NCBI GenBank assembly: GCA_965218095.1
Contig: OZ244587.1
Coordinates: 3,296,001 to 3,360,000 of the forward strand
Source of the DNA: Candidatus Poribacteria bacterium
Lineage (GTDB): Bacteria; Poribacteria; WGA-4E; PCPOR2b
Length of the DNA stretch: 64,000 nucleotides
Direction of reading: 5' to 3'
The notes under the pieces are model-generated. The model was not told the origin of the DNA. It saw only the letters and a list, made by a program, of their open reading frames with translations, and did not search any database. Of the stretch, positions 26,362 through 57,855 are shown one piece after another (positions within the stretch are counted from its first letter, which is position 1; each line of letters opens with the position of its first letter). Made by a program: the position numbers and the translations under genes.

Positions 26362-26407
26362 TAAAAAACGCCTGTCAATTCGTCCTAGGGACGAAAGTGA
26401 CAGGCGT
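26362..26407 (-). terminator. Intrinsic terminator of the T-box leader
   Basis: ACGCCTGTCA/TGACAGGCGT stem followed by a U-tract on the minus strand. Confidence 0.85.
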
Positions 26408-26640
26408 CAAAACCTTCCGCGGTACCACCCTAATTGGCAAATATAGCATTTGCCCACTTCATTGGTCGTTTCGATAACGGTGAAACTCCCGGCACGAGCC
26501 TACTTGCCTGCAATCGGCGTTCAACTCGGCGGCTCCAGGATGAAATTCGGTGGCTCGTTCCAAAGATACGCTTTCAGCCGGTGACGCATCCTCTCTGCTT
26601 GGAAGCCTCCAACCGCTTACTGTGTCCCTTCACAACCTTT
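26362..26640 (-). promoter_or_regulatory. Phe T-box riboswitch (tRNA-dependent antitermination leader of pheS)
   Basis: Minus strand shows an AGTA box, CAGAGAG and GGCTGAAA stem-I loops, specifier GAATTTCATCC (UUC/UUU), T-box AATTAGGGTGGTACCGCGG (26417-26435), then the terminator ACGCCTGTCA...TGACAGGCGT-TTTTT. Confidence 0.92.
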
Positions 26641-26693
26641 ACACAAACTCAATTTTATAATGTAGCCCCGAGCGTGGTCGGGATTTGAGTCCA

Positions 26694-47850: not shown

Positions 47851-48028
47851 AGAGCGAGCAGCACCATTTTCGATCTATCGGGCCTCTACCAGTGAAAAAC
47901 GTCTATTTTTCAAAAAATTCGCTCGGATGAAAGTTTTTTGACATGAGCGGTGTCATACAGGATGCAAGATTCAGGGTGGAAGTGCTGAATTCTTGAATCC
48001 TAAATCTCTTAATCACCGGAGCCAAACC

Positions 48029-49888
48029 GTGCGTACGGAAGATGGATATCTCATTGATAAATGCCTCAACGGCGAACCGGAAGCGTTTGGCTTGCTGGTT
48101 GATACATACAAATCCAGCCTCTATGCGTTGGCGTATGCCAGAGTGCGGAACCTCCACGACGTGGAAGACATCACCCAAGAGGCGTTTATCAAAGCGTACA
48201 AGAACCTTCGTACCTTGAAACGCGGGGACAGCTTTAAGGCGTGGCTCTATTCGATTACGTCGAATCTGTGCAAGAACTTTTTGCGCTCGAAATCTCGGCG
48301 TCCGGACGACGAATTTATCGACAATCCGGGCGTAGATGTCGCGGAACCGACGGTGGTGGATGACGCGCTTGATGACCCAATGCACGAAATGCTCCATGAA
48401 TCCTTAGCGGCGCTGCCGGCGATGTATCGAGAAGTCTTGACGCTCCACTATCTGGGCGGCATGAAAAGTCGAGAGATTGCCCAGTTTCTTGGAACATCGA
48501 AGAACACGATCGATACCCGCCTGAGACGCGCCAAATCATATCTAAAAGAGGAGATGCTTACCATGATGAGTACAACGTTTGAACAATACCGCTTACAACC
48601 GAGTTTCACTTTCCGCATTATGGAAATGATCAAAGAGACGAAGATCCAGTCTGCCCCACACAAGACGACTCTCCCCTGGGGACTTTCAATCGCAGCAGGA
48701 CTGGTTGCTATTTTTATCAGTTTCACCGTTCCCTTCAGCCCACTTTTCCCTATTGGGACGCTGATTGGTTCAGCGCTTCCCACTCAAACGCAGGTCGCGG
48801 AGTTTGGCGAGATCCCTGTTGATACCATAGAAATTACGGAGATTACTGTCCTTTCCACTAAAAAAGGGGATAGAGATTTCGGACAGAAGCCCAGGCCCAA
48901 TCCGATAAGCGCCTTCGCTCCTGCGAGACAAGAGGGGAAGTGGAGAGGGAGAGCTCGTATGCGAACTAAAAGATGGATGTTGGCTGCCACTGTTGTGAAC
49001 GGGAAGATTTATGCCATCGGCGGGTTTGGGCCTACTAGGTTTAACGCAAAGACTCTCCCAACGGTGGAGGAGTATGACCCCGTAGCGGATAAATGGACAA
49101 AGAAAGCGGACATGCCAACCCCAAGATATGTTCTGTCGGCGAGTAGCGTGAACGGGAAGATTTATGCCATCGGCGGGTGGGCGGGACGTGCGAAGGGCAC
49201 TCGTTCAACAGTGGAGGAATATGACCCAGTAACAGATACATGGACCCAGAAAGCGGACATGCCAACCTGGAGATCCTCCCTTTCCACCAGTGTGGTGAAT
49301 GGGAAGATTTATGCCATTGGCGGAGGGGAACCTGGTAAAGTATTTTCGACCGTGGAGATGTACGATCCTGTGACGGACAAATGGACCCAGAAAGCTGATA
49401 TGCTGACCGCAAGATCGGGTTTGTCCACAGACGTGGTGAATGGAAAGATTTATGCCATTGGCGGGAGTGATTCTGTTGAGGATTTTCCGACCGTGGAGAT
49501 GTACGATCCGGCGACAGATATGTGGGTGAAGAAAGCGGACATGCCAACCCCTAGATCCGATTTCGCTACAGGCGTGGCAAGGGGAGGGATTCATGCCATT
49601 GGTGGTACGGCAATGATCAGACGCGGTGAACTGGGTATATGGGAAACCATTTCAAAAGTTGAAGTGTATCAGCCGGCAAGGGACAGATGGACAAAGGAGG
49701 TCGACATGCGGGTGCCACGCGGCTATATTGCCGCCGGTACGGTCAATGGAAAGATTTATGTCATCGGCGGCACGTCAGTACGCCCTGGCCTGCCGCTTGC
49801 AAAAGTGGAAGAATTTGACACCGGATTCGCCGTCAACCCCGCAGGAAAACTCGCCACATTGTGGGGGCAAATCAAATCCGCGCGCTAG
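48029..49888 (+). CDS. ECF sigma factor fused to a TM segment and a Kelch beta-propeller, ending in a GKLATLWGQIK motif
   Basis: Region 2 (VEDITQEAFIKAY, SFKAWLYSI), region 4 (LPAMYREVL...EIAQFLG...RLRRAK), hydrophobic segment, 6 Kelch repeats (VNGKIYAIGG...VE.YDP.TD.WT.KADM); probable GTG start at 48029. Confidence 0.92.
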   Translation: MRTEDGYLIDKCLNGEPEAFGLLVDTYKSSLYALAYARVRNLHDVEDITQEAFIKAYKNLRTLKRGDSFKAWLYSITSNLCKNFLRSKSRRPDDEFIDNPGVDVAEPTVVDDALDDPMHEMLHESLAALPAMYREVLTLHYLGGMKSREIAQFLGTSKNTIDTRLRRAKSYLKEEMLTMMSTTFEQYRLQPSFTFRIMEMIKETKIQSAPHKTTLPWGLSIAAGLVAIFISFTVPFSPLFPIGTLIGSALPTQTQVAEFGEIPVDTIEITEITVLSTKKGDRDFGQKPRPNPISAFAPARQEGKWRGRARMRTKRWMLAATVVNGKIYAIGGFGPTRFNAKTLPTVEEYDPVADKWTKKADMPTPRYVLSASSVNGKIYAIGGWAGRAKGTRSTVEEYDPVTDTWTQKADMPTWRSSLSTSVVNGKIYAIGGGEPGKVFSTVEMYDPVTDKWTQKADMLTARSGLSTDVVNGKIYAIGGSDSVEDFPTVEMYDPATDMWVKKADMPTPRSDFATGVARGGIHAIGGTAMIRRGELGIWETISKVEVYQPARDRWTKEVDMRVPRGYIAAGTVNGKIYVIGGTSVRPGLPLAKVEEFDTGFAVNPAGKLATLWGQIKSAR

Positions 49889-50276: not shown

Positions 50277-51488
50277 TCAGGCCGCCAAAATTCGCTCGTA
50301 TACGCTTATGTGTTCGCCCTCCTTCTCCTCCGAATCGACCAGTTTGAGCCATACCGCCTGATCCTTTCTGTCGCCGCTGAGTTGCTGGACGTCGCCCGCA
50401 TTCTCCGGATGGACGCCACTCCAGATCACTTCCCCATCTTGCAGGTAGATGAACACGCCAGCGTAATGCTCCACTAGCCGGTCCCGATTATCCCGAAAAA
50501 ACAGCCCCTGTTGGCATGCGGTTCGACGCAGATTGGCGATTTTTTCATTGGGGTCCATCTCTGCGGAGTCAAACTCCGCCAGGGGCGGCTTTAGCCCACC
50601 CATGTCAAAATCGATCTCGTCCAAATCCACTGTACCAAAACCGTGCTCCGCAGCCACCGCGATGGGACTGCGATCGCGACGGTAGGGCGGGTGTGGCCAG
50701 TCGAGGCGAGGGGCGGTACCCATCAGATAGGTCCCGCAAGCATCGGTGGCAATGACATGATCGCCGGCAACTAACGCATCACAGATGCGTCCCTCCCCGC
50801 CCCACTCCCGTTTTGATTGACCCGTCAAGCCGTCGATGATGTTAAGGCAGGGCTGGGTGATTAAACCGAGGTCGGGTAGCACGTAGGAGAGCCGAATAGC
50901 ATGATGAAAGTAGGTCCGAACCCGGCCGTGGGGTGGTATGGGTGGTAAACCAAAAAGGTTCTTGAGACATAACGTGATGCCCATAAAGGCATGGTTTTTC
51001 ATCTTGGCGATGGAGACAAAGGCGTCGGCCTCGCCAAGGGCAGCAGAAAGCTGGTATTCAGAGAACATCAAGCCGCCGCCGGGAACCTTGTACCGCTCGA
51101 AGGGCGGATCGCCGGCTTCGACATAAGGGATATCAAACTCCTCGAAGATTGGGCCGGTATTAAAATCGTCCCCAGGACGCTGACCAGCAGGTACCATGCT
51201 GGTATCGATAACAAAAATATGTGCGTCGGTGCGCTCCTGCAAGAGACGCAACGATGCACACAGCACATCCTCATCCACCAGTTCTTGGCGCCGCCCGCCA
51301 ATGCGACGGATGTTATCGGTACGCATCTGCATGTTTACCTTGATACCGATTTTGCGGGCTTTTTCTATCTTTTCCCAGGATCGGGTTAGGGGGGTGGTAA
51401 TCGCCTTGAGCTTTTCGTAGATTTCCTCCTGGGATGCCTTGTGACTGCATGGAATGGCACGGACTTTGTAGGCTTTTTCTTGAATCAT
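50277..51488 (-). CDS. DUF362 domain protein
   Basis: IGIKVN, SIAKMKNH...ITLCLKNLFG, LNIIDG, DHVIATD; start MIQEK after AAGGAGG. Confidence 0.85.
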   Translation of the reverse strand: MIQEKAYKVRAIPCSHKASQEEIYEKLKAITTPLTRSWEKIEKARKIGIKVNMQMRTDNIRRIGGRRQELVDEDVLCASLRLLQERTDAHIFVIDTSMVPAGQRPGDDFNTGPIFEEFDIPYVEAGDPPFERYKVPGGGLMFSEYQLSAALGEADAFVSIAKMKNHAFMGITLCLKNLFGLPPIPPHGRVRTYFHHAIRLSYVLPDLGLITQPCLNIIDGLTGQSKREWGGEGRICDALVAGDHVIATDACGTYLMGTAPRLDWPHPPYRRDRSPIAVAAEHGFGTVDLDEIDFDMGGLKPPLAEFDSAEMDPNEKIANLRRTACQQGLFFRDNRDRLVEHYAGVFIYLQDGEVIWSGVHPENAGDVQQLSGDRKDQAVWLKLVDSEEKEGEHISVYERILAA

Positions 51489-51927
51489 GCTGAAAACCTC
51501 CTTCGATTGCGGATTGTTGCGATTCAGCGTCACGAATGAATTCGAAGGCATTCTCGTAGCGTATTTCGTAAACGGTTTTATTCGCCATTTTCAGGAATTG
51601 CCTGTCAAAACTCTATACACATGCTGTGTAAGTTGTCAAGGAATACTATTTAGAAGATTGCGCGAGGGCTAAGGATTATGGTAAAATGAAATGTGCATCA
51701 ATTGGGTTTATTGTTGCATTCGCACCCTGGCCCGGGCTTTCTCCCTCCTTGATATAGTTGGCGTCAGCAGGTATTATAGCATAGGACTTTATTCCTTTGA
51801 AAGCAAAATGGCATCAAACTGTAGTGGTCAGGAAGATGGCAGACAATTTGCGGCTTGGATTTACCGAGCAAAAGTGTCGATTGACCATTACAAAAATGGT
51901 ATCAAGCTCAGAATTTGAGGAATTACG

Positions 51928-53283: not shown

Positions 53284-54222
53284 TTGAGGAAATACGTTGA
53301 GGTGCTCATCGCGCTAGTCTGCATCATCGGTTATCTGAGGTGTACTCAGGATAAAACGCAGCTTGGTTGGCAGAAGATCGAATCGGGAACAGAGGCGCAC
53401 TTATACGGTGTCCACTTCGTTGACGCCAAACACGGTTGGGCGGTCGGCGCAGACGGTGTGGTTTTAGTCACAGAAGATGGTGGTTTGAAATGGAAGGTGC
53501 AATCACCGAAAAAAGCCATTTCCAAGAATGCACTCAATAAGGTCCACTTCTCTACCCCAACCCACGGTTGGTCAGTCAGTCTCAGGGGACGCATCCACTA
53601 TACAGGAAGCGGCGGCAAATCGTGGACAGAGCAACAGGGTCACACGCAGAGCGGATTACTTGACCTCTATTTTACAAGTCCAACAGAAGGCTGGGCAGTC
53701 GGTGGGAGTGGCATCATCCTCCACACGGATAATGGTGGTGGTTTGTGGAGTCGCCAAGATGCGCCGTCGGCCGGTCACTTGTGGGCTGTTCACTTCGCTG
53801 ACGCGAAGAACGGTTGGGTTGTCGGCAGGGAGGGGAAGATTCTTCACACTGAAAACGGCGGCAAATTCTGGCGTGAACAGCGGAGCAATACCGATCAACC
53901 GCTGCTGGACGTTTATTTCGTTGACCCACAGAACGGCTGGGCTGTTGGGACAAACGGGCAGGTCTTACATACAACGGATGGTGGTGCAAACTGGAGACGG
54001 CAGAAAAGTAACACACAGAAGACCTTGCGTGGCGTTGCATTCCCAGGCGCCGAGCAGGGCTGGGCAATCGGCGAAGATGGATTAATCTTGCATACAACCG
54101 ACGGTGGGCAAACGTGGATGCCCCAACCGAGTGGATCAGAAGAACACCTTCTGGACATCTGTCTGTATAAAGATCGCAGTTGGATCGTTGGGGCAAAAGG
54201 CACAATTCTACGTCTCGGTTAG
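53284..54222 (+). CDS. YCF48-like BNR-repeat beta-propeller, probable lipoprotein
   Basis: Repeats L..V.F.D...GWAVG..G.ILHT.DGG..W..Q.S; GAGGA RBS. Confidence 0.88.
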   Translation: MRKYVEVLIALVCIIGYLRCTQDKTQLGWQKIESGTEAHLYGVHFVDAKHGWAVGADGVVLVTEDGGLKWKVQSPKKAISKNALNKVHFSTPTHGWSVSLRGRIHYTGSGGKSWTEQQGHTQSGLLDLYFTSPTEGWAVGGSGIILHTDNGGGLWSRQDAPSAGHLWAVHFADAKNGWVVGREGKILHTENGGKFWREQRSNTDQPLLDVYFVDPQNGWAVGTNGQVLHTTDGGANWRRQKSNTQKTLRGVAFPGAEQGWAIGEDGLILHTTDGGQTWMPQPSGSEEHLLDICLYKDRSWIVGAKGTILRLG

Positions 54223-54429: not shown

Positions 54430-54676
54430 ATAGATGAATAATGAGCTTCTTCTTTTGCACAGAATGCGGCATAGAAGTTGCTTTAGCTTCAGCCGTATCC
54501 AATTGACCGGAGAAGCTCTCGAAGCCCTGTGATAAAATTGGCAGGCGTTATCGTCGTACTTGACGGGCTCTGGGTTGGGTGCCCCTTCGTGATTGTCAAA
54601 AGCTAAAAAGGGGAAAGCGTCACGAAACGCCGTTACGCATTACGTTTTACGCATCACGCATGAGGAGGTATATGAT

Positions 54677-55231
54677 ATGTGTTGGAGACAGATTCGCGTG
54701 TTAAGTCTGATCCTCTGTTTTCTGGTAGTTTTGGGCTGTTCAGACGACGACGGTGACGAGATAATAGAGATTGATGAGCCAACAGTTGACAATACAACAC
54801 CCCCCGATGCAAATGAAGATTCTTCGTTACCGCTCGCGCCCAACTTTACGTTACCAGATACAGAGCTTGAGGAGGTCAGCCTCTCAGACTACGAAGGCAA
54901 GGTCGTCCTTTTAGATTTTTGGGCGACGTATTGTAAACCGTGCGAAGAGGAGATTCCGCTTTTCGTCGAACTCTATGATGAGTATCGGGGGCAAGGGTTT
55001 GAGATGATTGGTATCTCCCTGGATGATGGGCTGGACGTCGTCGATCCCTTTATTCAGAGACTGGGCGTCAACTACACCATTTTACTGGCAGTCCCTGGAC
55101 TTGTTCAGAAATATAACATACCTGGGCTACCTGCTGCGTTCCTTATTAATCGTAGGGGAAGAATTGTGAAAGTATTCGATGGCGAACAAGAAAAAGCAAC
55201 CTATGAAAGTGAGTTGAAGAAATGGCTATAA
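54677..55231 (+). CDS. TlpA/ResA-family thiol-disulfide oxidoreductase lipoprotein
   Basis: GAGGAGG RBS; lipobox VLGC; APNFTLPD, VVLLDFWATYCKPC, GLPAAFLINR.G. Confidence 0.9.
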   Translation: MCWRQIRVLSLILCFLVVLGCSDDDGDEIIEIDEPTVDNTTPPDANEDSSLPLAPNFTLPDTELEEVSLSDYEGKVVLLDFWATYCKPCEEEIPLFVELYDEYRGQGFEMIGISLDDGLDVVDPFIQRLGVNYTILLAVPGLVQKYNIPGLPAAFLINRRGRIVKVFDGEQEKATYESELKKWL

Positions 55232-56415
55232 GGAATAAACCGATTTATCAAGCTTTGGCACTGATCTTCCTGGGAGCTGCGCTGATTGTGTGGTCCGGTT
55301 GTGGCAGTGACGATAATCCTATAGTAACAGAAGATACACTAGACGACGATTCGACCCCTACAATCGATGATCCGACTCCCGTAGTCTTGACCGGTAGCCT
55401 GAAAGGGCAAGTGGAAACCATTGAAGGCGTACCGATTAACATCCAGGTCCTGCAAAATGGCAAAGTGATCGCCTCCACCCAAACCAATGCCGATGGAAAT
55501 TACCAAATCGATAGCGTTGAACCGGGAACTTACACCGTTCAAATCACAGCGAAAGGCTATCGAGCCGCCGACCTGACCGTACAAGTTATCGCTGATCAGG
55601 TTAAGCCACTTGATAAGGTGGCGCTTGAGGCATTAGAAATTCCTGTTTCTCACATTCGAGGACGCTTATCAGACCAAGCGACGAAGAAACCCCTTGACCG
55701 GGTTCGTGTTCAACTTATCGATGACGCGGGCAATATCCGTGAGGCGCTGACAAAGGCAACAGGCGTCTTTGAATTTGAAAATGTCCCCGCAAATCAGCCA
55801 TTCACCGTACTGATCGATCACGATGGATACGAGCAGCAGGAAATTAAAATCGATCCAGTCCCGGCCGCTGAAGCCGCAAAGATCACAAACGAACTTGTGC
55901 CAGTTCAGCAAGGGGAACAACCCCCGGTCGGTGAGGGTCTGGCAATCGGCGCGAAAGCGCCAGATTTTCGTCTGCCCGATGGGGATGGGAAGATTCACGC
56001 CCTCGCCGATTATGCGGTGGAAAAAAAGATTGTGCTGGTGTTTTATCGAGGGATCTGGTGACCGCATTGCATCAATCAACTCGGAGAGTTGCAGAAAAAC
56101 TATAAAAGGATTCGAGCAGAAGGGGCGGAAGTTATCGCGATTAGTTCGGATACACAGGCGGAGACGAGACGGACTATTGAGAAGGTCGAAAGGCGCTTTG
56201 GTGCCGAAATACGGTTTCCTGTGCTTTCCGATGCGGAGACACAGACCATCGCCGCCTATAATGTAACCGATCCCCTCAATCACCGGCTTGCACGTCCGGT
56301 GACCTACATCATCAATGAGAGCGGGACGATTCGGTGGAAGTTCCTTGATGTGCGGGTCGGCAATCGGATAGCGCCCGACAAGGTTATTGATAAGTTGAAA
56401 AAATTTAATAAGTAA
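55222..56415 (+). CDS. Lipoprotein with two carboxypeptidase-regulatory-like domains plus an AhpC/TSA (peroxiredoxin-like) domain; candidate selenoprotein with Sec at codon 280 (UPHC)
   Basis: Lipobox WSGC; APDFRLPD...VLVFYRGIW-TGA-PHCINQLGELQ continues in frame to AISSD, FPVLSD, PVTYIINESGTIRW; hairpin CAACTC-GGA-GAGTTG. Confidence 0.88.
56077..56091 (+). promoter_or_regulatory. Putative bacterial SECIS hairpin
   Basis: Stem CAACTC/GAGTTG; loop GGA begins 21 nt after the UGA. Confidence 0.65.
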
Positions 56416-56431
56416 AGGTGACAAACGAGCT

Positions 56432-56653
56432 TTGCTCGCCACTTTCAAATGTCCAATCTTCCATGTAGAGATGTATGAAAATTTCCGTATTGCCGCATTG
56501 GATATTGATCTTCTTAAAGTTGCAGCGAACATTGGTGGTAACTTGGAAATGCACGATAAACTGATTGTAGCGACCGCGCTTTATTTTGATGCGCCTCTGA
56601 TTACCAGGGACGGAAAAATCACTCAAAGTGAAATCGTAAGCACTGTTTGGTAG
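56432..56653 (+). pseudogene. C-terminal remnant of a PIN-domain (VapC-like) toxin
   Basis: EMHDKLIVATALYFDAPLITRDGKI...TVW; N-terminal half absent. Confidence 0.65.
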
Positions 56654-56673
56654 CGTTAGAATTAACCAATCCA

Positions 56674-57855
56674 ATGGCAAGAACAACATCTTCAGTTAAT
56701 CAACCCGTATCAGATCCAATTGTGGAACAAATTCGAGCGGATTGCGATCAGATTTCACACATCAAAGCAACCGAGCCCCGATCGGTGAGTCGGCGGCGTT
56801 TTTTGCGTCAAACATCGCAAGGCGTGATTGGGGCGGGATTTGCCCTGGGGAGCCTATACTCAGCGACAAACAACGCTTTCGCTCAATTGGGTACGCCGCG
56901 CGGCACACTTCCAGAAGATCAGCTTCAAGATCAAGGGACGCCCGTGGTCGAAGCCACAAGTGAAAAGGCCTGGGAGGGTGATATACTCAATGAGCAGGTC
57001 GTCAGTGAGATGATCGATCGCGCGATAATGAAACTGACGGGACTCGACTCGGCGAAGGAGGCGTGGAAGGATTTTGTCCTGCCCAACGACATTGTCGGGA
57101 TTAAGATAAATCCCATCGGTGGGAAGCTGTTGAGTACGCATCGAATCATCGTCGATAAGATCGTCGATGGATTATACGGGGCGGGCGTCCTCAAAAATCA
57201 GATCATCATCTGGGATCGGTTTGAATCCCACCTGATTAACGCAGGTTACGAGATTAATCAAAGCGATCAAGGGGTGCGTTGCTTCGCATCGGACAGTCAA
57301 GGCGTTGGCTACGACGACGAAGTTTACTATGAAACCGAAAAGGATGTCGAGGTGCGCCGTGAGAACGAGAGCATCAGATCTCAATATACGAAGATACTCA
57401 CTCAAGAGGTGACGGCGATCATCAACGTTCCGGTGATGAAACATCACGGGATCACCGGCGTTAGCGGATGCCTGAAAAACCTTGCCTTTGGCAGCGTCGA
57501 TAACACCCGCCGCTTCCACTCAAATCCCCTGAATTGCAATCCTGCTATTGGCGACATTTTCGCGCACGCTATCCTGAAAGATAAAGTTGCTCTGAATGTC
57601 GTTGATGGGTTGCTCGCTTCGTTTGATGGTGGCCCCACATATGACCCCGATGGGGTGTGGAAGTATGGCGGCATCCTCATGAGTGTGGATCCAGTGGTGT
57701 TGGATCAGATCATTCTTCAAACGATTGAAGAGAAACGGAAGGAGCTCAAATTAGGGTCAATCACTCGATTGGAGAAATATATCCGCTCATCGTTCCAGCT
57801 AGGACTTGGCACGAATAACCTCGACGAAATCGATTATCGAGAAGTGAAGGTGTAG
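56674..57855 (+). CDS. DUF362 domain protein with a twin-arginine signal
   Basis: SRRRFL Tat motif; VGIKIN; INVPVMKHH...SGCLKNLAFG; SVDPVVLD. Confidence 0.85.
   Translation: MARTTSSVNQPVSDPIVEQIRADCDQISHIKATEPRSVSRRRFLRQTSQGVIGAGFALGSLYSATNNAFAQLGTPRGTLPEDQLQDQGTPVVEATSEKAWEGDILNEQVVSEMIDRAIMKLTGLDSAKEAWKDFVLPNDIVGIKINPIGGKLLSTHRIIVDKIVDGLYGAGVLKNQIIIWDRFESHLINAGYEINQSDQGVRCFASDSQGVGYDDEVYYETEKDVEVRRENESIRSQYTKILTQEVTAIINVPVMKHHGITGVSGCLKNLAFGSVDNTRRFHSNPLNCNPAIGDIFAHAILKDKVALNVVDGLLASFDGGPTYDPDGVWKYGGILMSVDPVVLDQIILQTIEEKRKELKLGSITRLEKYIRSSFQLGLGTNNLDEIDYREVKV

Follow-up and report, generated by a model that had tools for sequence, protein, structure and literature searches.

Selenoproteins of the Prx-like thiol:disulfide oxidoreductase kind have been described as carrying a PF00578 domain with a UxxC or UxxU active site, in which U is selenocysteine (Sec), and in the available parts of two reports they are predicted with high confidence (PMC9312934, PMC13188914). 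In the GOS survey the group named Prx-like 1 comprised 225 sequences (Table 2), and, as far as the available text of that paper goes, Prx-like 2 and 3 were fused with other domains (PMC2398784). For Poribacteria, the portions of the selenoprotein literature covered here name the phylum only among those with Sec hydrogenases. The present analysis concerns a stretch of 64,000 nucleotides from a Candidatus Poribacteria bacterium (GCA_965218095.1, contig OZ244587.1, positions 3,296,001 to 3,360,000), referred to below as the window, and within it an interrupted gene at 55222-56415 on the + strand. We conclude, with a probability of roughly 0.8, that the locus is a single gene and encodes a genuine, exported selenoprotein of the UxxC kind, with a redox head mounted on a lipid anchor and a stalk. 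The genome is one contig of 6.35 Mb, on which the window is C1:3296001-3360000; loci outside the window are given with the prefix G000:C1.

A single gene interrupted by one TGA

Two open reading frames (ORFs) on the + strand, 55222-56061 (279 amino acids, ATG start) and 56089-56415 (108 amino acids, TTG start), share a common frame, and the TGA at 56059-56061 is the sole in-frame stop between them. When this TGA is read as U, a protein of 397 residues is obtained that ends at a TAA at 56413-56415. The complete gene, as defined by the frame, the Pfam match and the homolog alignment, has 397 codons plus the TAA, with Sec as codon 280. The codon context at the TGA is VLVFYRGIW-U-PHC-INQLGELQ, so that the TGA occupies the first position of UxxC; the second redox position is the TGC at 56068-56070 (+) for Cys283. 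The original prediction, made from the sequence alone, had placed two ORFs in the same frame, parted only by this TGA, in the context VFYRGIW-*-PHC; the ORF map, the 397-residue read-through and the translation agree with it.

A single PF00578 AhpC-TSA match (111.1 bits against a cut-off of 26) crosses the TGA uninterrupted. Because one domain match spans the TGA and the same stop column recurs in 25 of 25 homologous matches, the locus is more than a chance arrangement. On the basis of the conservation of the TGA and of the sequence behind it, the hairpin, the Sec machinery and the Cys homologs, residue 280 is almost certainly selenocysteine. The earlier proposal of an AhpC/TSA-type UxxC selenoprotein is borne out by the domain match across the TGA, the conservation of the TGA and the presence of Sec machinery.

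Conservation of the TGA and of the sequence behind it

Homologs were present in all of the 41 related genomes searched, and 20 loci (L024-L043) were fetched for detailed comparison. Using the head as a tblastn query against these loci, a stop at position 280 together with Cys at 283 was found in all 25 matches that span residue 280; one additional match, outside the 25, is broken off by the end of its locus. Two members from another family of the order, only 29-30% identical, retain the lipobox, two beta domains and the sequence U-PVC. The U..C motif is held by 27/27 homologs, the 25 and these two distant ones.

A wider phylum sample of 151 genomes was searched at a threshold of E<=1e-40, and 129 of them carry a match. 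Counted by family, and leaving aside the genome of the window, matches were obtained in 21/25 genomes of a first family, 98/100 of a second and 9/10 of a third, and in 0/15 of the six remaining families (f4-f9). There were 150 matches listed and 47 more besides; among the matches listed, those extending to residue 280 number 139, and every one of them has a single TGA, the TGA column itself having been verified for the 27 homologs. The 11 listed without a stop all terminate by residue 228.

The downstream half is under constraint as protein. In an alignment of 23 sequences, 15 columns after U280 are invariant: C283, Q286, L287, L290, Q291, Y294, I297, E303, L335, D337, Y346, N347, G368, R382 and L392. 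A357, R358 and P359 are nearly invariant, R358 and P359 being kept in 22/23 homologs each (codons 56293-56298, +). These conserved residues use mixed synonymous codons, with four codons for L335 and four for R382. Invariant residues written in mixed synonymous codons indicate protein-level selection on the downstream half. A TGA unique to this strain and a degenerating downstream half had been named in advance as signs that would speak against a selenoprotein; the TGA recurs in the related loci and in the phylum-wide matches listed, and the downstream half is intact in sequence and varied in synonymous codons.

If the TGA were a true stop, the locus would hold a stalk-only lipoprotein followed by a separate or decaying 108-residue gene, that is, a split gene or a pseudogene. 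Public gene calls do end at the TGA (P0002 with 279 residues, and about 100 shortened homologs), the hairpin of the window described below is thermodynamically weak, and a decayed paralog with extra stops exists in the genome, at G000:C1:4602490-4602711. Termination at this point, however, would break one AhpC-TSA domain apart in the middle of the active site, and C283, Q286 and L287, which lie between the TGA and the TTG start of the second ORF, are invariant. The presence of exactly one TGA in 25/25 matches and in 139/139 among those listed, and the combination of amino-acid conservation with synonymous change downstream, also speak against it, and we regard a true stop as very improbable. 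The paralog fragment, on the - strand and outside the window, keeps a W-TGA-PPC site, but its hairpin codons are interrupted by an additional stop, and stops are reported in its flanks as well; decay of a former copy is the probable explanation.

A sequencing or assembly error for TGC or TGT was considered as a further explanation. What favours it is the general possibility of such errors in a metagenome-assembled genome (MAG), while the same TGA is present in 20 genomes and stands unaltered in a contig of RNA-library origin from a different sample (X11, record 8, 55884-56116). Words sampled from the stretch were present at fractions of 0.67-1.00 in nine more runs, which belong to 3 studies. 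An error of this kind is the least probable of the explanations considered. The RNA libraries derive from sponge metatranscriptome, and the runs are labelled sponge metagenome. Another contig (X10, record 3) spans the junction of the upstream gene and the selenoprotein gene, and further contigs cover the 3' half; record 12 of X12, with only 25 nt upstream of the TGA, was not counted as bridging, and several parts of the stretch have no contig cover. It must be held against this evidence that the libraries may contain DNA and that contigs cannot show transcript or translation.

Cysteine homologs of the head with the sequence FYRGxWCPxC had been expected, and they were found. The Brevibacillus 'peroxiredoxin-like family protein' P0272 aligns as VLVFYRGIWCPFC, with Cys opposite U280, at 35% identity and E 6e-32, and Cys also stands opposite U280 in P0208, P0119, P0270 and P0220, the last of which is a double-domain lipoprotein. 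Among proteins of 218-695 residues, no Cys-bearing protein combining PF13620 with this head was found, in a word-based search that may miss relatives, and the stalk-bearing matches all end at the TGA. The lack of a Cys version in these searches suggests that selenium is required for the function of this selenoprotein. Searching genome contigs for related loci gave three weak loci, from Balneolaceae, Cyclobacteriaceae and a Bryobacteraceae MAG, which match in the beta-sandwich part only. A search of protein representatives with the whole protein returned mostly giant CarboxypepD_reg repeat proteins and few Cys relatives.

Two further relatives of the head were observed. P0246 (223 residues, from a metagenome) is a close relative in which both redox positions are Ser (S-P-F-S), and it may be a redox-dead form. 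P0269 (220 residues, likewise a metagenome protein, 47% identical, from a contig of 793 nt) has Trp opposite U280 when read ungapped. Here the gene caller may have applied another genetic code to a TGA; the alignment preferred by BLAST is a gapped one, and no claim is drawn from it.

A hairpin behind the TGA

The TGA is followed by a hairpin that resembles a selenocysteine insertion sequence (SECIS), CAACUC-GGA-GAGUUG, at 56077-56091 (+) within the codons for Q-L-G-E-L. The stem segment 56077-56082 pairs with 56086-56091 over 6 bp and closes a GGA loop at 56083-56085. The distance from the TGA is 15 nt to the start of the stem and 21 nt to the loop. The original prediction had described a 6-bp hairpin with a G-starting loop that begins 21 nt downstream; hairpin and loop stand, and the 21 nt proved to be the distance to the loop instead of the stem. 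According to the Fig. 2 legend of PMC13188914, the bSECIS model calls for a loop of 3-9 nt, a stem of 4-16 bp, G in one of the first two loop positions, 16-37 nt from UGA to loop and a minimum free energy (MFE) of at most -7.5 kcal/mol. The window hairpin satisfies the loop, stem, G and spacing rules, with its 3-nt GGA loop, 6 bp and 21 nt.

Several observations weigh against a SECIS at this site. The hairpin alone has a folding energy of -4.8 kcal/mol, and the MFE of a 42-nt segment is -5.0 kcal/mol, which fails the bSECIS limit of -7.5. This 42-nt MFE is no better than that of shuffled sequences (z 0.06), and the MFE structure differs from the hairpin. An Rfam scan of the whole window at gathering thresholds returned no SECIS family. 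The GGA triloop also differs from CC-AGUU-GG, the apical motif found behind the TGA in selD and in two further Sec genes of this genome. A single-sequence fold of 81 nt gave z 0.77; folds of a single sequence speak neither for nor against the hairpin.

The support for the hairpin is comparative, since single-sequence folding is weak. Across 27 sequences, 97.4% of the cells in the stem are paired, and both-side changes occur in 3 of the 7 pairs; 0 of 500 shuffles match these pairing values, and slid controls pair at 14-53%. The stem has 7 bp in 22/27 homologs and 6 bp in the window copy, and two relatives with the seventh G-C pair, L026 and L036, fold at -10.6 and -9.2 kcal/mol. In distant members the stem reads GCAGUUG/CAACUGC or GCAACUG/CAGUUGC despite an altered peptide. 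The stem codons are fixed (L290 as TTG in 23/23, E289 as GAG in 21/21, Q286 as CAA in 22/23, and L287 as CTC in 19 and CTT in 4), while the loop codon varies (GGA in 12, GGT in 5, GGC in 3). As a control, ten other conserved Leu columns were inspected, and there the top codon is used in only 0.32-0.73 of the sequences. The compensatory changes and the frozen synonymous sites of the stem argue strongly that the hairpin is under RNA-level selection.

In the selD gene and in two further Sec genes, of the UPKD and UPNT forms (G000:C1 at about 5448321, 3538764 and 4427671, respectively), a common CC-AGUU-GG apical motif lies about 17-19 nt after the TGA. The organism may use two SECIS styles, one with CC-AGUU-GG and one with a GGN triloop.

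Selenocysteine machinery of the genome

The absence of Sec machinery from the genome had likewise been named as a sign against the proposal; all four genes were found. The scores are 605.7 bits for selA, 353.7 bits for selB and 371.1 bits for selD, which has an in-frame TGA of its own, and all are above the curated cut-offs. The tRNA-Sec gene (selC) scores 76.6 bits, also above its cut-off, and starts 94 nt after selB.

Another way in which the TGA could be read is by an ordinary suppressor tRNA(UCA), in which case residue 280 would be Arg and not Sec. Using ARAGORN, a 75-nt cloverleaf tRNA(UCA) was detected in a tRNA cluster at G000:C1:4577829-4577903 (-), and it scores 58.3 bits with the Rfam tRNA model. 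The ortholog of this gene in the same cluster is a tRNA-Arg(UCG) in 4/4 relatives checked, and these relatives keep the TGA; the suppressor is rejected on this ground as a family-wide explanation. The tRNA(UCA) has an A·C mismatch in its anticodon stem, a CxxC-type site with Arg in place of its nucleophile would lose all redox chemistry, and conservation of the hairpin at the RNA level also counts against such reading, which we hold to be highly unlikely. Three positions, clustered in the anticodon arm, distinguish the tRNA(UCA) from its tRNA-Arg(UCG) orthologs. The gene could encode a weak suppressor of opal codons, could be in decay, or could have arisen as an artefact of assembly.

Four more intact genes of the AhpC/TSA fold with a TGA at the active site were observed in the genome, at G000:C1 positions of about 4557714, 4427671, 3538764 and 6294430. 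In this order, the first is a paralog with three stalk domains and UIFC, the second and third are the UPNT and UPKD forms, and the fourth, at about 6294430, is a true peroxiredoxin of the TxxU type. Together with the gene studied here they suggest that the genome holds a large thioredoxin-fold selenoproteome.

Domains and predicted fold

An AlphaFold2 model of the selenoprotein was built from 23 homologs and has a mean predicted local distance difference test score (pLDDT) of 85.7 and a predicted TM-score (pTM) of 0.49. It contains an N-terminal helix (7-25), two all-beta domains (58-129 and 142-225) and a thioredoxin-type fold (250-396), in which U280 immediately precedes a helix at 281-292.

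At the N-terminus, the motif, the alignment and the model delimit a lipoprotein signal peptide (55222-55302, +) that consists of a basic N-terminal region, the hydrophobic helix 7-25 and a lipobox ending in Cys27. This Cys is found in 22/23 aligned homologs, and the sequence of the window protein before it is ...VWSG-C27. The Trp at lipobox position -3 is unusual and speaks against lipidation, for which the argument is one of motif. Processing by signal peptidase II and lipidation of Cys27 are nevertheless quite probable, as judged from this motif. The lipobox is followed by an acidic, Pro/Thr-rich flexible tether, residues 28-57 (55303-55392, +), with pLDDT below 50 at residues 26-50. Its length is strongly variable in the 23-sequence alignment, where long Pro/Asp repeats occur in 3 homologs.

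The stalk is formed by two CarboxypepD_reg beta-sandwich domains. The first comprises residues 63-131 (55408-55614, +; PF13620 51.5 bits; model strands 58-129) and the second residues 145-216 (55654-55869, +; PF13620 42.2 bits; model strands 142-225). They were scanned separately, and each is individually above the PF13620 gathering cut-off of 32.3. Two carboxypeptidase-regulatory-like domains behind a lipoprotein signal had been predicted, and both the PF13620 scores and the conserved lipobox Cys support this; the predicted length and build of a 397-residue lipoprotein with a Sec domain on a stalk were also recovered, with lipidation at the level of a motif. Among the 23 aligned homologs, the stalk has two domains in 16 (including the 3 with long Pro/Asp-rich repeats), one domain in 4 and three in 3. 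The four single-domain homologs have an acidic linker ahead of their one beta-sandwich domain, and a three-domain paralog is encoded in the same genome at C1:4556619-4558025.

The head is an AhpC/TSA domain of the peroxiredoxin fold, residues 242-372 (55945-56337, +; PF00578 E 4.3e-32), with the fold continuing to about residue 396. Using Foldseek with the head, the nearest solved folds were found to be the peroxiredoxins Bcp4 (3hjp) and AhpE (1xvw, 1xxu), with target-normalised TM-scores of 0.86-0.89 and a root-mean-square deviation of about 2.1-2.3. The combination of a lipid anchor and a stalk of one to three beta-sandwich domains with a Prx-like UxxC head looks new within the literature searched.

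Active site and likely activity

To establish the register of the active site, the head was aligned with AhpC/TSA-fold paralogs from its own genome. Against true peroxiredoxins (FYPKDFTRG-U-T, FYPLDFSPVC), R276 stands opposite Pro, U280 opposite Thr or Ser, C283 opposite the peroxidatic Cys or Sec, and R358 opposite the catalytic Arg. Against TlpA-like paralogs, U280 and C283 stand opposite the Cys pair of CxxC, P359 is opposite the cis-Pro, and R358 is opposite Leu. In the homologs, the residues at the peroxidatic Cys and catalytic Arg positions of peroxiredoxins are conserved (C283 in 23/23, R358 in 22/23). The active site is a hybrid, with a thioredoxin-type UxxC and cis-Pro, a peroxiredoxin fold and Arg, and neither the Pro nor the Thr of peroxiredoxins, and it looks new.

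No NCBIfam model reaches its cut-off with the selenoprotein. The top score is that of ResA (NF002854), 60.7 against 170, and TlpA scores 23.6 against 230. Peroxiredoxin models are also below their cut-offs (a putative peroxiredoxin model with 48.9 against 261, another with 43.9 against 140, and PrxU with 36.2 against 270), as are the selenoprotein models SelL_rel_redox (38.8 against 120) and WAxxUGC_long (24.3 against 300). The protein is a member of the Prx-like thiol:disulfide oxidoreductase UxxC kind and not a canonical peroxiredoxin. The original prediction had called the head a peroxiredoxin; the AhpC/TSA domain is confirmed, with the refinement that the head is Prx-like and not a canonical peroxiredoxin: U280 takes the place of Thr/Ser, and the peroxidatic position falls to C283.

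A mechanism can be proposed from these features. During translation, SelB with Sec-tRNA(Sec) would bind the hairpin 15 nt after the UGA at 56059-56061, and selenocysteine would almost certainly be inserted at residue 280. The protein would then, quite probably, be exported and attached to lipid at Cys27, as predicted from the motif. The flexible acidic tether and the two rigid beta-sandwich domains would hold the head off the membrane. There, the exposed selenolate of Sec280 would probably attack an oxidised substrate, and Cys283 would resolve the product to give a Sec280-Cys283 selenenylsulfide.

The nature of the substrate is evenly poised, and our leaning is to a hydroperoxide, because the catalytic Arg of peroxiredoxins has its counterpart in Arg358, the fold is that of a peroxiredoxin, and Sec lies at the N-terminus of a helix. 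Sec at a helix N-terminus is the geometry of glutathione peroxidases. Several points count against a peroxidase role. Among solved structures, the best matches by sequence come from ResA thiol-disulfide oxidoreductases (3c71_A with E 1.5e-13, the best-scoring peroxiredoxin having E 3e-9), the head lacks the Pro and Thr of PxxxTxxC, and in the literature the family goes by the name thiol:disulfide oxidoreductase.

The same selenoprotein could instead work in the manner of ResA/TlpA/DsbE, as a reductase or isomerase acting on protein thiols and disulfides; one such task would be to keep envelope or surface proteins reduced. In favour of this role, the UxxC is in the CxxC register, Pro359 is at the cis-Pro of ResA, 3c71_A is the best solved match, the ResA subfamily is the top NCBIfam match, and R276 and U280 replace the Pro and Thr of peroxiredoxins. 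On the other side, the ResA model gives only 60.7 bits for a cut-off of 170, the nearest folds are all peroxiredoxins, Arg358 (22/23) occupies the peroxiredoxin Arg position at which the TlpA-like paralogs of the same genome have Leu, and a dedicated TlpA-like protein is already encoded next to the gene. We consider a thiol-disulfide role a real possibility, with about a one-in-three claim on the evidence.

For the proposed selenoprotein to turn over, it would have to be re-reduced. It may be that this falls to the TlpA-like CxxC lipoprotein that is encoded upstream and would be co-transcribed, itself fed by a carrier of the DsbD type; judged from gene order, the odds of this are about even.

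Genomic neighbourhood

The gene directly upstream, at 54593-55231 (+), encodes a ResA/TlpA-like thioredoxin-fold lipoprotein with a CxxC site (CKPC), with matches to Pfam AhpC-TSA (84.8 bits) and Thioredoxin and a score of 114.3 against a cut-off of 170 for the NCBIfam ResA subfamily. It ends 10 nt inside the selenoprotein gene, so that the two genes overlap, and its true start is probably an internal ATG at residue 29, just before its lipobox. A TlpA-like gene lies directly upstream of the selenoprotein in 10/19 other loci. It was not found beside the remaining 9/19, which weighs against it as the reductant, and another family of the order has Sec paralogs in tandem instead. The genome also encodes, at a different place, a DsbD_TM protein, a membrane carrier of electrons.

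Downstream, at 56647-57855 (+), a DUF362 protein is encoded (PF04015, 72.3 bits) whose N-terminus, by eye, is twin-arginine-like (RRRFLRQ); the same neighbour is found downstream in 9/19 other loci. A second DUF362 protein is encoded at 50277-51551 (-), which places two DUF362 genes within 7 kb. Between the selenoprotein and DUF362 genes there is an ORF of 73 residues (56432-56653, +) with no Pfam match and with 69% identity in loci L041 and L043. By eye we take it to resemble the C-terminal part of a PIN/VapC-type protein, and it is perhaps what is left of a gene.

Upstream of the TlpA-like gene, a Ycf48/BNR-like beta-propeller lipoprotein is encoded at 53284-54222 (+; PSII_BNR E 7.4e-43), in the same position in 7/19 loci, and its host is an organism not expected to be photosynthetic. 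An unusual ORF of 631 residues at 47993-49888 (+) has ECF-type sigma-70 regions 2 and 4 fused to a C-terminal Kelch beta-propeller. Rfam families in the window are limited to a T-box leader at 26384-26642 (-), which scores 97.2 bits where the gathering threshold is 93. The wider genes of the window (xanthine-dehydrogenase-like, sigma70-Kelch, DUF362, Zn-dehydrogenase and fatty-acid hydroxylase) gave no clue to the substrate.

Significance

In most genomes of the order, the selenoprotein, its paralogs and its orthologs are publicly listed as truncated or split proteins, and no curated NCBIfam model covers the family. From the split listings and the lack of an NCBIfam model at cut-off it follows that a widespread selenoprotein of a major sponge-symbiont lineage has been missed by annotation. 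The gene adds an exported, lipid-anchored and stalk-mounted form to the Prx-like UxxC selenoproteins, with an active site that mixes thioredoxin-type and peroxiredoxin-type residues. Taken with at least four other intact AhpC/TSA-fold genes with a TGA, it points to heavy use of selenium in the envelope redox defence of these uncultured symbionts.

A more speculative idea, which we hold to be rather unlikely, is that the stalk serves as a molecular ruler. A head found only with Sec, on stalks of one to three domains (with Pro/Asp repeats in some), would place peroxide or disulfide reduction at set distances from the membrane and, with the TlpA-like reductant, would form a selenium antioxidant shield against oxidants of the sponge host or of seawater. 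The hybrid site would then represent a new glutathione-peroxidase-like selenolate mechanism on a peroxiredoxin scaffold.

Comparison with known systems

In the literature searched, no paper was found that describes a stalked, lipid-anchored Prx-like selenoprotein of this build, and the supplementary fusions of PMC2398784 may hold a similar case. The words carboxypeptidase, lipoprotein, periplasm and Poribacteria are absent from PMC13188914. The search gave nothing that joins a carboxypeptidase regulatory-like domain with selenocysteine, and among the papers listed for CarboxypepD_reg with AhpC and lipoprotein, none contains the word CarboxypepD_reg. The original prediction had stated that the architecture was not recognised as described, which holds within the literature searched and is not carried beyond that scope.

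The closest described relatives are the Prx-like thiol:disulfide oxidoreductase selenoproteins. In the available accounts of that kind, the shared features are a PF00578 match above cut-off, Sec as the first residue of UxxC, Cys homologs with CxxC and the predicted function. Compared with those accounts, the protein described here adds a lipoprotein signal, a tether, one to three CarboxypepD_reg domains and Arg358, and no Cys-bearing ortholog of its own build was found.

The Cys 'peroxiredoxin-like family proteins' (P0272 of Brevibacillus reuszeri, P0208, P0119 and P0270), which we take to be the CDD group PRX_like2 (cd02970), are 30-37% identical to the head over the domain, and their FYRGxWCPxC matches FYRGIWUPHC residue for residue. 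They differ in having Cys and not Sec, a length of about 220 residues, a helical N-terminus and no stalk. Ahead of the cis-Pro strand they also carry about 22 inserted residues, and they have the sequence (L/V)P(L/V)PATY, without an Arg before the Pro.

ResA, TlpA and DsbE proteins (B. subtilis ResA, 3c71, 1st9) share with the selenoprotein the CxxC register, the cis-Pro and extracytoplasmic anchoring, and they are its best sequence matches of solved structure. They are set apart by its score below the ResA cut-off, a fold nearer to peroxiredoxins, Sec in place of the first Cys and the beta-sandwich stalk. With the canonical peroxiredoxins BCP/PrxQ and AhpE (3hjp, 1xvw), the protein has in common the fold, the peroxidatic position (occupied by Cys283) and the position of the catalytic Arg (occupied by Arg358). 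In contrast to these, and also to the Sec peroxiredoxin of TxxU type in the same genome (G000:C1 at about 6294430), Arg276 and Sec280 replace the Pro and Thr, Sec lies three residues before the peroxidatic position, and the scores fall below every NCBIfam peroxiredoxin cut-off. The enzyme type is known, and the lineage-wide stalked, lipid-anchored form is a variant of the known UxxC selenoprotein kind.

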